Position numbers and translations under genes: made by a program | The notes under the pieces: generated by a model | Told to the model about the DNA's origin: nothing | The model's input: only the letters and a program-made list of their open reading frames with translations | The model's database searches: none | Source: Escherichia coli O127:H6 str. E2348/69 | Lineage (GTDB): Bacteria > Pseudomonadota > Gammaproteobacteria > Enterobacterales > Enterobacteriaceae | Length of the DNA: 64,000 bases | Direction: 5' to 3' (one strand) | Assembly: GCF_000026545.1 (NCBI RefSeq) | Contig: NC_011601.1 | Shown: positions 37,019 to 38,872 of the stretch, in pieces | Layout: each line of letters begins with the position of its first letter | How positions within the stretch are numbered: position 1 is the stretch's first letter

Positions 37019-38872
37019 ATGGCATTTAAATACTATGATGTTGTCAGGGCGGCGTCGCCGTCAGACCTTGCGGAAAAGCTGACACATAAACTGAAAGAGG
37101 GCTGGCAGCCGTTTGGTAGTCCGGTGGCCATAACCCCTTATACCCTGATGCAGGCGATTGCAGCAGAAGGTGATGTGGTCGTCAGTGGTGCAACTGAGCC
37201 GGACTGGTTCTACGTGGTTGTGCTTGCCGGACAGTCCAACGGCATGGCCTACGGTGAAGGGCTTCCGTTACCGGATTCTTACGATGCTCCGGATCCGCGC
37301 ATTAAACAGCTGGCGCGCCGCAGCACGGTAACTCCGGGTGGAGAGAGTTGTACGTATAACGACATCATCCCGGCTGACCACTGTCTGCATGATGTGCAGG
37401 ATATGAGTACGCTGAATCATCCGAAGGCAGACCTGAGCAAAGGGCAGTACGGCTGTGTCGGCCAGGGCTTACATATTGCCAAAAAACTGCTCCCGTATAT
37501 CCCGAATAACGCGGGGATCCTGCTGGTACCATGCTGTCGTGGTGGTTCGGCATTCACCCAGGGCGCGGAGGGGACATTCAGTGCGGACGCGGGGGCCAGC
37601 CAGGATTCGGCGCGCTGGGGGGTGGGTAAACCGTTATATCAGGACCTGATTGCGCGCACTAAAGCTGCATTACAGAAGAACCCGAAAAATGTGTTGCTGG
37701 CGGTGTGCTGGATGCAGGGAGAGTTTGACATGAGCGCCGCCACCTACGCACAGCAACCTGCGCTGTTTACAGCCATGCTGAAGCAGTTTCGTGCTGACCT
37801 CACTGTGTTTAACGCGCAGTGTCATGGTGGCAGTGCTGTAAATGTGCCGTGGATTTGTGGTGACACGACGTATTACTGGAAAAATACATACGCTACCCAG
37901 TACGACACCGTGTACGGCGGGTATAAAAACAGGGAGAGTGAGGGCGTTTATTTTGTGCCCTTCATGACAGACGGTAACGGCGTCAATACCGCCACTAACG
38001 CACCGGCAGAAGATCCGGATATTCCGGCATCAGGATATTACGGTGCGGCATCGAGAACGAATGGAAACCAGGTATCATCAAACCGCCCGACACATTTCAG
38101 TTCATGGGCGCGCAGGAGCATTATTCCGGATCGTATGGCAACCGCTATTCTGAACGCAGCCGGGCGCACCTCAGCTTTCATCAGTGGTAAGGCACCGGAA
38201 ATCAAACCCTCGCCCGGCGGCAACACGCCATCGGGGCCGTCTGAAGATGCATCCGTACGCACAATCTCCCTGTTGCCGACAGCCGGAGAGGCTGCTGCGC
38301 AGGGCTGGACCATTAAGGACGGCGGAATTCAGTTGTCGGGTGGTGTATTTAAGATCGCCAAGCAGAGCAATAAAACCTGGTCCCTGATGCATCCGGTGGA
38401 TGACGCAGTCTCCCTGCTGACACGGGGTGGCAGACTGAGCTGTAAGTTTCGACTGTCAGGCGCACTGACCAACAACCAGTTCGGCCTGGGAATTTATCTG
38501 TATACCGATGTAGCGTTACCTGACGTCGTGGCGATGACCGGGACTGGTAACCCGTTCCTGATGTCGTTCTTCACCCAGACCACAGACGGCAAACTGAATC
38601 TGATGCATCACAAGAAAGCAGGAAACACAAAGTTGGGCGAGTTCGGGAATTACAGTAATGACTGGCAGACGCTGGAACTGGTGTTCACCGCCGGCAGTGC
38701 CACGGTTACTCCGAAACTGAATGGAGTGGCTGGCCCGGCATTCCAGGTCATAAAAGACAGTCTGACACTGGGGCTGAATGCGCTGACGCTGACGGATATT
38801 ACCAAAAATGCAGCGTATGGCGTTGAGATAGAAAGTCTGGTGCTGGAGATAAATGCACCGGCATCATCATAA
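37019..38872 (+). CDS. nanS-p: prophage NanS-p-type sialate O-acetylesterase (DUF1737 N-terminus + SGNH/SASA esterase)
   Basis: 617 aa; N-terminus MAFKYYDVVRAASPSDLAEKL... typical of the esterase encoded downstream of stx in Stx phages. Confidence 0.8.
   Translation: MAFKYYDVVRAASPSDLAEKLTHKLKEGWQPFGSPVAITPYTLMQAIAAEGDVVVSGATEPDWFYVVVLAGQSNGMAYGEGLPLPDSYDAPDPRIKQLARRSTVTPGGESCTYNDIIPADHCLHDVQDMSTLNHPKADLSKGQYGCVGQGLHIAKKLLPYIPNNAGILLVPCCRGGSAFTQGAEGTFSADAGASQDSARWGVGKPLYQDLIARTKAALQKNPKNVLLAVCWMQGEFDMSAATYAQQPALFTAMLKQFRADLTVFNAQCHGGSAVNVPWICGDTTYYWKNTYATQYDTVYGGYKNRESEGVYFVPFMTDGNGVNTATNAPAEDPDIPASGYYGAASRTNGNQVSSNRPTHFSSWARRSIIPDRMATAILNAAGRTSAFISGKAPEIKPSPGGNTPSGPSEDASVRTISLLPTAGEAAAQGWTIKDGGIQLSGGVFKIAKQSNKTWSLMHPVDDAVSLLTRGGRLSCKFRLSGALTNNQFGLGIYLYTDVALPDVVAMTGTGNPFLMSFFTQTTDGKLNLMHHKKAGNTKLGEFGNYSNDWQTLELVFTAGSATVTPKLNGVAGPAFQVIKDSLTLGLNALTLTDITKNAAYGVEIESLVLEINAPASS

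Follow-up and report, generated by a model that had tools for sequence, protein, structure and literature searches.

The window, a 64,000-nucleotide stretch of the EPEC E2348/69 genome, carries a lambdoid, stx-less prophage that adjoins ompW. Two of its genes, both on the plus strand, concern us here: a nanS-p-type sialate O-acetylesterase gene (37019..38872, stop codon included), which opens with ATG and encodes 617 amino acids, and lom (62037..62636), which encodes a 199-residue, 8-stranded β-barrel outer membrane protein of the Ail/Lom family. An earlier sequence-only reading had given exactly these coordinates for both ORFs, had taken the first for a sialate O-acetylesterase with an N-terminal DUF1737 domain and the second for an Ail/Lom protein, and had named domain searches as the check that could refute these assignments. 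Pfam supported both. In the 617-residue ORF the searches returned DUF1737 at amino acids 3–50 (54.5 bits), SASA at 66–262 (47.5 bits) and DUF6645 at 467–577 (70.1 bits), each scoring higher than its gathering threshold. The protein also matched phrog_143 over its full length (1149 bits) and the NanS structure PDB 3PT5 with an E value of 8e-121. RefSeq labels the CDS in E2348/69 merely as a ‘DUF6645 domain-containing protein’; the NCBI entry for the identical protein is named ‘YjhS’ (CAS08957.1), and its 90%-identity cluster holds 13,211 members. The identical sequence was found on 24 contigs. Identity is 93–94% to YjhS of Stx1a phages and JLK-2012, and 56% to 933W NanS-p in a two-sequence alignment. 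Using blastn, about 2–4 further nanS-related places were seen in the E2348/69 genome, and a related gene is present in approximately half of complete E. coli genomes. Both nanS-p and lom are therefore ordinary, already known members of well-known families, and with the exact protein public as YjhS the gene identities by themselves add little.

The SGNH/SASA catalytic domain spans amino acids 59–385 (37193..38173, plus strand), as delimited by a residue-by-residue alignment to NanS (3PT5). Four of four SGNH blocks are kept in the window protein: GQS73NG, RGGSAF174–179, MQGEFD232–237 and RPTH359FS align with blocks I, II, III and V of 3PT5 at positions 17–21, 120–125, 178–183 and 298–303 (block table from PMC10792757). 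S73, R174, G175, S177, M232-E235, D237 and H359 were invariant across all 16 aligned homologs. By this alignment, the predicted catalytic residues of the core are Ser73 as the nucleophile and His359 as the base. Chromosomal NanS (YjhS) of E. coli O157:H7, the protein in 3PT5, has the same SGNH/SASA fold with the GQSN, RGGSAF, MQGEFD and xHFS blocks. Because the 337-residue 3PT5 chain aligns solely to amino acids 59–379 of the window protein, NanS has no counterpart of DUF1737 or of the C-terminal lectin-like domain. NanS is a periplasmic protein with a signal peptide. In contrast, hydropathy revealed no signal peptide or hydrophobic N-terminus in the window NanS-p, which means that the enzyme would be unable to reach extracellular mucin without lysis. 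All nanS-p alleles tested from EDL933 and O104 are active esterases, including alleles in non-Stx prophages (PMC10462455, PMC8065619), and reports of activity on Neu5,9Ac2 or on O-acetylated sialic acids of mucin concern EDL933 and O104:H4 alleles alone (PMC8065619). We predict sialate 9-O-acetylesterase activity for E2348/69 NanS-p (subtype cat1/ct1, short linker).

The C-terminal part of the protein, amino acids 420–617 (38276..38872, plus strand), is a lectin-like β-sandwich domain recognized by Pfam DUF6645 and by PDB 6YP6, whose ‘NanS-p’ chain (the C-terminal domain) matches amino acids 422–613 with an E value of 1.3e-29. An AF2 model of full NanS-p, built from a 16-sequence alignment with a mean pLDDT of 60.9, likewise gave an all-β C-terminal region (pLDDT about 70–89). 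As judged from its domains, the ORF encodes an intact NanS-p of the prophage family, built of three modules, namely DUF1737, an SGNH/SASA core and a lectin-like C-terminus; the Pfam, 3PT5 and 6YP6 matches and the SGNH blocks all bear out the esterase assignment.

The genes around nanS-p are those of a lambdoid late region. The late antiterminator gene Q lies at 33845..34534 (plus strand; PF06323, 305 bits). By consensus scan only, a candidate pR′ falls at 34518–34546 and a candidate tR′ hairpin at 34598–34621, both on the plus strand, followed by a plus-strand tRNA cluster (34730..34970; ARAGORN, Rfam and RefSeq). The lysis genes are directly 3′ of nanS-p (39023..40190, plus strand) and comprise P21-type holin S (39023–39238), ydfR/DUF1327 (39243–39593) and lysozyme R (39657–40190), each identified by Pfam and RefSeq. 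The order Q, tRNAs, nanS-p, S, R is that of 933W, VT1-Sakai, BP-4795 and 2851, minus stx; compared with the 933W layout (Q-tRNAs-stx2-nanS-p-S), the window tRNAs occupy the slot of the Stx-phage tRNAs and stx is absent. A hairpin scan found a plus-strand terminator-like hairpin (38955..38983) that separates nanS-p from the holin gene. A crude consensus scan found no sigma-70-like plus-strand promoter in the 369 bp upstream of nanS-p (36650–37019), where a weak or IS-borne outward promoter may have escaped it. GC content was 54.7% for nanS-p and 54.8% for lom, compared with 54–60% for neighboring late genes and 52.5% for the prophage, and thus neither gene has the GC anomaly that would be a sign of horizontal ‘moron’ origin. 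According to published work, induction raises nanS-p along with stx2a and the late genes (PMC10462455, PMC8065619). A three-gene minus-strand cassette was also searched with PADLOC and Pfam, which gave nothing usable.

An insertion sequence separates nanS-p from the late promoter region. ISEc13, an IS4/Tn5-like element of 1550 bp named as such by RefSeq, occupies 35100..36649 on the minus strand with inverted ends CTGTCTCTT...AAGAGACAG, and its transposase (35111–36484, minus strand) has the Pfam Tnp_DNA_bind, DDE and Tn5 dimerisation domains. An 8-bp direct repeat, CTGTGCGG, flanks the element at 35092–35099 and 36650–36657, and the target site is uninterrupted in the relative L003. The insertion splits an STnc100-family sRNA (Rfam RF02076, plus strand), leaving the 5′ part at about 35045–35099, left of ISEc13, and the 3′ two-thirds at 36650..36796, which includes the terminator hairpin of the sRNA (36766–36785, plus strand). 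RF02076 scores 75.5 bits on the interrupted window copy and 123.6 bits on the intact one of L003. Between 34400 and 39300 we counted 14 terminator-like sites versus 4.4 expected, several of them inside ISEc13 on the plus strand. With 1.55 kb of antisense ISEc13 and several hairpins between pR′ and nanS-p, late transcription of the gene could be reduced or abolished.

Taken to its end, this arrangement would make nanS-p a silent passenger, intact and effectively unexpressed in E2348/69, uncoupled from pR′/Q by ISEc13 and the internal hairpins and/or stranded in a prophage that is no longer inducible, and contributing nothing there. The position of ISEc13 between Q/tRNAs and nanS-p and the excess of terminator-like sites are consistent with such silence, as are the confinement of the ISEc13 configuration to three E2348/69-lineage assemblies and the redundancy that follows from the further nanS-related places in the same genome. 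However, the ORF is full length with intact catalytic blocks, the exact protein recurs on 24 contigs, and the structural and lysis genes of the prophage all seem intact in the RefSeq annotation. Additionally, Q-modified RNA polymerase passes terminators; in lambda, it reads through them across many kilobases. We regard silence as unlikely and favor a nanS-p that is still read as a late gene.

The DUF1737 domain (amino acids 1–58; 37019..37192, plus strand) consists of a conserved segment (amino acids 1–34), an anchor loop of type C, PVAITPYTLMQ, which contains Tyr41, and a short linker, EGDVVVSGAT. In phi24B gp84 the DUF1737 domain docks on capsid hexons (preprint 10.64898/2026.04.10.717836), and by sequence the window domain is homologous to this capsid-docking domain. 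Clustering of amino acids 1–34 at ≥80% identity put all 153 full-length homologs into a single group. Compared with 933W, this segment is 82% identical while amino acids 35–58 are only 17% identical. The Tyr42 ‘tooth’ loop of the gp84 type was not found in the window DUF1737, whose loop is shorter and of another type, and the SISSP processing motif after DUF1737 is missing from the window protein along with the linker that contains it. Tyr41 of the window loop is a candidate counterpart of gp84 Tyr42. The AF2 model was unusable for placing Tyr41 on an exposed loop, with DUF1737 at pLDDT <50 and confidence limited to the C-terminal β-sandwich.

The capsid available for docking also differs. The major capsid protein of the window (44930..46867, plus strand) is a prohead protease S78 fused to an HK97-type capsid domain by Pfam, here termed head type ‘W’, and the cognate T=9 capsid of the phi24B/933W type is not present. 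BLASTP found no similarity between the window capsid protein and those of the 933W, lambda-like and T3 types. The W-type capsid protein is the candidate docking partner of DUF1737.

To compare the anchor with the head module, we surveyed 151 homologs and expressed association as Cramér's V. Anchor and linker were typed by motif, as automatic clustering of the ‘loop’ segment had merged the two. With shared ancestry of the loci ignored, anchor-loop type tracks head-module type with a V of 0.83–0.90 in the 151 homologs, and tracking is much weaker for the catalytic domain (V 0.32–0.42) and the Q gene (V 0.31–0.50). Under the same disregard of shared ancestry, V for the anchor was 0.86 when the loci were de-duplicated (60 loci), 0.95 when the enzyme type was kept constant and 0.83 when each module combination was counted once (19 combinations); set beside the adjacent Q gene, the anchor reached 0.90 and Q 0.56. 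Anchor type C is found beside both the W and the lambda-like capsid modules, which are unrelated to each other. In the window-type clade, identical DUF1737 sequences sit beside W, lambda-like, lambda and T3 heads; this clade alone spoke against capsid specificity, and the anchor-head association emerged only with the wider sample that took in the 933W-type enzyme.

These associations raise the prospect, which we put forward tentatively and hold at somewhat less than even odds, that NanS-p is a modular ‘capsid adaptor + enzyme’ in all lambdoid phages and not just in the podovirus phi24B. An anchor loop of ∼25 residues would be matched to the capsid module (type A to 933W-type heads, type B to VT1-Sakai-type heads, type C to W and lambda-like heads), and the esterase/lectin cassette would be swapped independently. 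In that case, E2348/69 NanS-p might decorate the capsids of a long-tailed EPEC prophage without stx and turn the virion into a mucin-modifying particle.

Among the closest known systems, the NanS-p proteins of 933W (z1466/L0105) and phi24B (vb_24B_21/gp84) have a three-domain architecture like that of the window protein, and their genes occupy the same slot, 3′ of Q/tRNAs and 5′ of a P21-type holin gene. The catalytic blocks are identical, and identity reaches 70% in the catalytic domain and 82% over DUF1737 amino acids 1–34. In contrast, the window lacks stx genes upstream of nanS-p, its anchor loop is of type C rather than type A (ALISTAGYGAEFIQ), its linker is 11–14 residues shorter and without the SISSP motif, and its C-terminal domain is only 35% identical to that of 933W. 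The particles differ as well, since the window phage combines an unrelated head (the HK97-type protease-MCP fusion) with a lambda-like long tail, whereas 933W and phi24B form a T=9 podovirus particle. The long-tailed Stx phages BP-4795 and 2851 carry the head module of the window (TerL 98%, MCP 99–100% identical), and their NanS-p has a type C anchor like that of the window, with 88% identity over amino acids 35–58. Their catalytic and C-terminal domains, however, are of the 933W type (94–99% identical to 933W, 36–70% to the window), and their linker is long, unlike that of the window. Stop codons interrupt the copy in 2851.

We favor, with a probability of roughly 0.6, a reading in which intact nanS-p opens the protein-coding part of the Q-dependent late operon and its product is released by lysis and probably tethered to capsids, with lom forming a separate surface cassette. 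On this account, nanS-p would be transcribed mainly upon prophage induction, by pR′ read-through under Q antitermination. The protein, having no signal peptide, would be made in the cytoplasm and would leave the cell through holin/endolysin lysis, after which it may strip O-acetyl groups from mucin sialic acids and make these usable by sibling lysogens. DUF1737, given its homology to gp84, would probably also tether NanS-p to the phage capsid.

The substrate assumed here is host mucin. A review raises as an open possibility that such esterases instead act on O-acetylated O-antigen or capsule and aid the access of the virion to its receptor (PMC8065619), and the virion association in phi24B and the lectin-like C-terminus would suit a virion-borne, depolymerase-like accessory enzyme of this kind. 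However, the core is close to NanS, whose substrate is 9-O-acetyl-Neu5Ac, the tested NanS-p alleles de-O-acetylate mucin sialic acids (PMC8065619), and the phi24B domain is located on the capsid and not on the tail. We consider a bacterial substrate very unlikely and retain mucin as the probable target of the lysis-released enzyme.

The sequence-only reading had cast both genes as lysogenic-conversion morons. For nanS-p this would mean autonomous cargo, expressed from the repressed prophage, that brings the lysogen a metabolic or colonization advantage and has no role in the particle or the lytic cycle. In keeping with that, lysogen growth on Neu5,9Ac2 depends on nanS-p alleles (review PMC8065619), the gene is dispensable for lambda-type phages and absent from lambda and the Stx2e/f/g phages (PMC10462455), terminator-like hairpins flank it, and the same allele type sits beside several head modules, as freely exchanged cargo would. 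However, the consensus scan detected no promoter-like site upstream, a GC anomaly is absent, the enzyme needs lysis to reach extracellular mucin, and published expression is induction-dependent (PMC10462455). Furthermore, DUF1737 binds the capsid in phi24B, and among proteins that share an enzyme segment the anchor type changes with the head type. Autonomous cargo thus appears improbable for nanS-p. Given its late-operon position, the lack of a detected promoter of its own, of a GC anomaly and of a signal peptide, its reported induction with late genes, and the DUF1737 homology and head co-variation, nanS-p is better seen as the gene of a late enzyme that lysis releases and that may be attached to the virion. 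The moron label held for lom, which encodes an exported barrel within a hairpin-bracketed cassette and whose lambda counterpart is reportedly expressed from the prophage.

What is worth keeping is this correction of the label, in that nanS-p behaves as a late phage gene with an N-terminal module tied to the capsid module. If anchor-capsid matching is true, lambdoid phages, Stx and non-Stx alike, would display sialate esterases on their virions, which would bear on how such phages and the pathogens that carry them meet O-acetylated intestinal mucus, and also on the annotation of prophage ‘cargo’.

The lom gene is far from nanS-p in the window and lies between J and a tail-fiber gene that starts at 62785. 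It forms a discrete 600-bp cassette with a terminator-like hairpin on each side: a hairpin with a T-run in the gap that separates the end of J from the lom start codon (61988..62007, plus strand; hairpin scan and sequence read), and a strong hairpin of 13 pairs 3′ of lom (62740..62769, plus strand). No promoter for lom was found by a crude consensus scan. Pfam Ail_Lom (PF06316) covers 1–199 of 199 positions with 418.3 bits, which bears out the family assignment, and PHROGs assigns the ORF to phrog_108, ‘Lom outer membrane protein’. The N-terminus (hydropathy 2.68, then AWA/SE) reads as a signal peptide, MRKVCAAILSAAICLSVSGAPAWA/SE. PDB matches include the lambda Lom chain 9wso_C (E value 6e-48) as well as OmpX and Ail (about 4e-20), and the protein scores under the NCBIfam equivalog cut-offs for Rck-like PRK15240 and OmpX. 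From these features, the window Lom is a predicted Sec-exported Ail/Lom β-barrel. A Lom-J complex in PDB 9WSO was considered and dropped, as the search with J did not return 9WSO.

Lambda Lom is reportedly expressed from the prophage (PMC11888456, PMC3594210) and has an anti-lambda-vir effect (PMC11888456). By analogy, lom would be expressed in E2348/69 lysogens and may alter the cell surface, affecting adhesion and/or blocking the adsorption of related phages. Lambda Lom, of the Ail/OmpX/PagC/Rck family, resembles the window protein in its full-length Ail_Lom domain, its signal peptide and the location of its gene between J and a side tail-fiber gene. Identity to lambda Lom is 41.5%, compared with 98% to PhiR40_1 Lom, and the window protein differs from lambda Lom in belonging to a subtype common in O157/EPEC lambdoid prophages (86–98% identity).

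The open reading frame at 37019..38872 (nanS-p; plus strand, ATG start) encodes a 617-aa protein that RefSeq names only 'DUF6645 domain-containing protein'. NCBI lists the same sequence as 'YjhS' (CAS08957.1), and its 90%-identity cluster holds 13,211 members. Three Pfam domains were matched above the gathering score, DUF1737 (residues 3-50), SASA (66-262) and DUF6645 (467-577), and PHROGs family phrog_143 matched over the full length. Additionally, residues 59-379 match the NanS/YjhS structure 3PT5 (E 8e-121) and residues 422-613 match the 6YP6 chain named 'NanS-p' (E 1.3e-29). 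The blocks of 3PT5, GQSNA (Ser19), RGGSAF, MQGEFD and R-x-SHFS (His301) (PMC10792757), occur in the window protein as GQS73NG, RGGSAF174-179, MQGEFD232-237 and R-P-TH359FS, and the catalytic block positions are invariant across 16 aligned homologs. Overall identity is 56% to the biochemically characterised NanS-p of 933W and 93-94% to the 'yjhS' genes of some Stx1a phages and phage JLK-2012. Thus, the domain, structure-match, catalytic-block and homolog identity evidence supports the sequence-only reading, which had predicted a sialate O-acetylesterase-type gene with a DUF1737 N-terminus here. A related gene is found in 2,727 of 5,426 complete E. coli genomes, and at three to four places in the E2348/69 genome.

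The gene belongs to a lambdoid prophage that runs from an integrase adjoining ompW (19475-20605, minus strand) to the window end, and whose late region looks complete, with Q, tRNAs, lysis genes, terminase, HK97-type head, lambda-like tail, J, lom and a tail fibre gene. Upstream of nanS-p are a Q gene (33845-34534, plus strand, PF06323) with a promoter-like site overlapping its 3' end (consensus scan), a hairpin with T-run downstream of Q (34598-34621, by scan), tRNAs (34730-34970) and then a terminator-like hairpin. Downstream lie, in order, a P21-type holin, ydfR and lysozyme, and the scan placed a hairpin at 38955-38983, 3' of nanS-p. This is the canonical NanS-p slot. Phages 933W, VT1-Sakai, BP-4795 and 2851 share the gene order and carry stx between the tRNAs and nanS-p, whereas the window prophage has no stx. 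Within the tRNA cluster, ARAGORN calls the first tRNA Met(cat) where RefSeq has Ile, and it detects a third (Lys, anticodon ttt; 34807-34882, plus strand) between the two annotated ones. This tRNA is absent from the RefSeq annotation and scores below the Rfam gathering score, so it could be a degenerated copy of the argN-like tRNA that 933W carries.

A consensus scan found no plus-strand sigma-70-like promoter from 36650 to the nanS-p ATG, a region in which hairpins are present. The GC content of nanS-p (54.7%) resembles that of neighbouring late genes, and its product has no signal-peptide-like hydrophobic stretch at the N-terminus. Co-induction of nanS-p with stx2a and other late genes has been reported, and EDL933 and O104:H4 alleles, from Stx and non-Stx prophages, are described as active esterases that support growth on Neu5,9Ac2 (PMC10462455, PMC8065619). 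Based on the slot, the negative promoter scan, the missing signal peptide, the GC content and these reports, the best-supported mechanism is that nanS-p would be expressed late and Q-dependently in induced cells, that its product would be freed by lysis and that it would de-O-acetylate mucin sialic acids, from which surviving siblings would benefit. The gene anatomy is directly observed; we infer the expression mode and the substrate from homologs.

Between the tRNAs and nanS-p lies a 1,550-bp ISEc13 element (35100-36649, transposase on the minus strand) with ends CTGTCTCTT...AAGAGACAG and the direct repeat CTGTGCGG on both sides. The target site is intact in a relative whose esterase gene is 99.7% identical, and the ISEc13 configuration is confined to the three E2348/69-lineage assemblies. 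The insertion interrupts an STnc100-family sRNA element (Rfam RF02076) located between the tRNA cluster and nanS-p, leaving a 3' remnant at 36620-36796 (plus strand, 75.5 bits) and a 5' part at ~35045-35099; the intact copy in the relative with the ISEc13-free site (L003:3690-3879) scores 123.6 bits. Because ISEc13 intervenes and may stop Q-modified polymerase short of nanS-p, the intact gene could be a silent passenger, effectively not expressed in E2348/69. We consider this unlikely, and retain late expression with release by lysis.

The Ail/Lom outer-membrane protein gene proposed earlier was located exactly at 62037..62636 (plus strand, 199 aa), and Pfam Ail_Lom covers its product over the entire length (418 bits). 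The PHROG of the product is 'Lom outer membrane protein', its scores for the Rck-like and OmpX models of NCBIfam stay below the equivalog cut-offs, and a classic signal peptide (...APAWA|SE) is present. The product is homologous to a solved lambda Lom chain (recent PDB entry 9WSO, E 6e-48), whose partner chains may bear on Lom function, and also to OmpX and Ail. Identity is 41.5% to lambda Lom, compared with 86-98% to the Lom proteins found in many lambdoid phages of E. coli. Lambda Lom is reported to be expressed from the prophage and to have a role in epithelial-cell adhesion; according to a newer report, its expression protects strongly against lambda-vir (PMC3594210, PMC11888456).

J (58496-61969) precedes lom and a collagen-repeat tail-fibre gene (plus strand, from 62785) follows it, with T-run hairpins at 61988-62007 on the J side and 62740-62769 on the tail-fibre side. 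No lom promoter was detected, and GC content is unremarkable. Both cargo genes had been labelled lysogenic-conversion morons, that is, autonomous genes expressed from a repressed prophage. The label suits lom, whose layout, a J/tail-fibre cassette with T-run hairpins on both sides, is moron-like; it holds only partly for nanS-p, which occupies a late-operon slot where the scan found no promoter. Since both families are known and both genes are already catalogued in the reference strain E2348/69, the finding is ordinary. Of wider interest is a family-level co-variation of the DUF1737 anchor with the capsid module, which would carry over to long-tailed and stx-less prophages what structural work has very recently seen in a single podovirus.

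According to a 2026 preprint (10.64898/2026.04.10.717836), the NanS-p gp84 of phi24B is an abundant virion protein; its DUF1737 domain forms hexamers that dock in the T=9 capsid's central hexons via a Tyr42-bearing loop, and its enzyme part is later cleaved off. In the literature searched, a DUF1737-capsid link appears only in this preprint, and earlier work has DUF1737 variants D1-D3 without relating them to capsids. Compared with 933W, the window protein keeps its first 34 residues (82% identity), whereas its loop differs and is shorter (PVAITPYTLMQ, with Tyr41), the linker bearing the proposed SISSP processing motif is missing, and the prophage capsid protein is unrelated, an S78 protease/HK97 fusion. 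AF2 gave no confident model for this DUF1737.

To ask whether DUF1737 acts as a capsid-matched module, we drew on 160 IMG/VR loci together with five reference phages and the window, which yielded 151 full-length homologs, a sample consisting mostly of E. coli isolates. The anchor loops fell into types C (n=111, including the window's), B (n=22) and A (n=18, the 933W/phi24B type), and the downstream head modules into four types with capsid proteins mutually unrelated by BLASTP: 933W-type, T3 (VT1-Sakai), W (the window's) and lambda-A. Head calls were available for 66 loci, and in these the counts in that order were 8, 0, 1 and 0 for anchor A, 0, 10, 0 and 2 for anchor B, and 0, 2, 15 and 28 for anchor C; five loci break the pattern. 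Against head type, Cramér's V reached 0.86 for the anchor (with permutation tests that ignore common descent); the catalytic domain gave 0.37 and the C-terminal domain 0.50, and both of these lie physically nearer the head genes. The 933W-type catalytic domain was found with all four head types (8, 11, 5 and 10 loci), and inside one enzyme type the anchor-head V was 0.95. For the 37 loci that also had a Q call, V was 0.90 for anchor-head, 0.56 for anchor-Q and 0.50 for Q-head. Where both the upstream Q (Q933) and the downstream cat2/ct2 (catalytic and C-terminal domain types) were identical, anchor A accompanied a 933W-type head, C a W head and B a T3 head. With every one of the 19 unique module combinations entered a single time, the anchor-head V was still 0.83, whereas the Q gene and the catalytic domain gave 0.31-0.32.

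BP-4795 and 2851 pair the window's head module and type C anchor with a 933W-type enzyme, which shows recombination at the DUF1737/catalytic junction. The nanS-p of the Stx2c phage 2851 (L086:14001-15938) is interrupted by two in-frame stops, its annotation shows two ORFs, and it is thus a probable pseudogene, in which the type C DUF1737 anchor is kept. Anchor C is common to two unrelated capsid modules, so the anchor-head match is not one-to-one. The co-variation is suggestive of a functional tie between DUF1737 and the head, and we regard capsid association of the window NanS-p as possible, at somewhat less than even odds.

Several other features of the prophage were observed. A second, distinct Q-type gene (28810-29331, plus strand, PF06530) includes a sigma-70 region-4-like segment, and the presence of two such genes (the other at 33845-34534) points to a late-control region that is mosaic or duplicated. 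Between this second Q-family gene and hokD/sok, three successive minus-strand ORFs of 197, 142 and 363 aa (29331-31478) gave zero Pfam matches, and their sole PADLOC match, for the 197-aa ORF, was marginal (PDC-S54, E 0.0014, 16 bits). Opposite to the surrounding nin/Q region, this uncharacterised cassette has a moron- or defence-island-like layout. The DicF antisense RNA (24011-24062, minus strand) adjoins dicB/ydfD and the sok antitoxin RNA (31655-31830, plus strand) adjoins hokD, both typical Qin/Rac-like prophage modules. The receptor-binding C-terminal part of J (residues 865-1157; 61088-61966) matches the solved lambda-type J fragments 9wca ('A8 gpJ 713', E 1e-184) and 8xcj (E 1e-163), which hints at lambda-like receptor specificity. 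Lastly, in the tail-fibre gene (62785-64000, plus strand) a long stretch rich in Ala, Glu and Ser precedes collagen-like G-X-Y repeats, and the gene extends beyond the window end.
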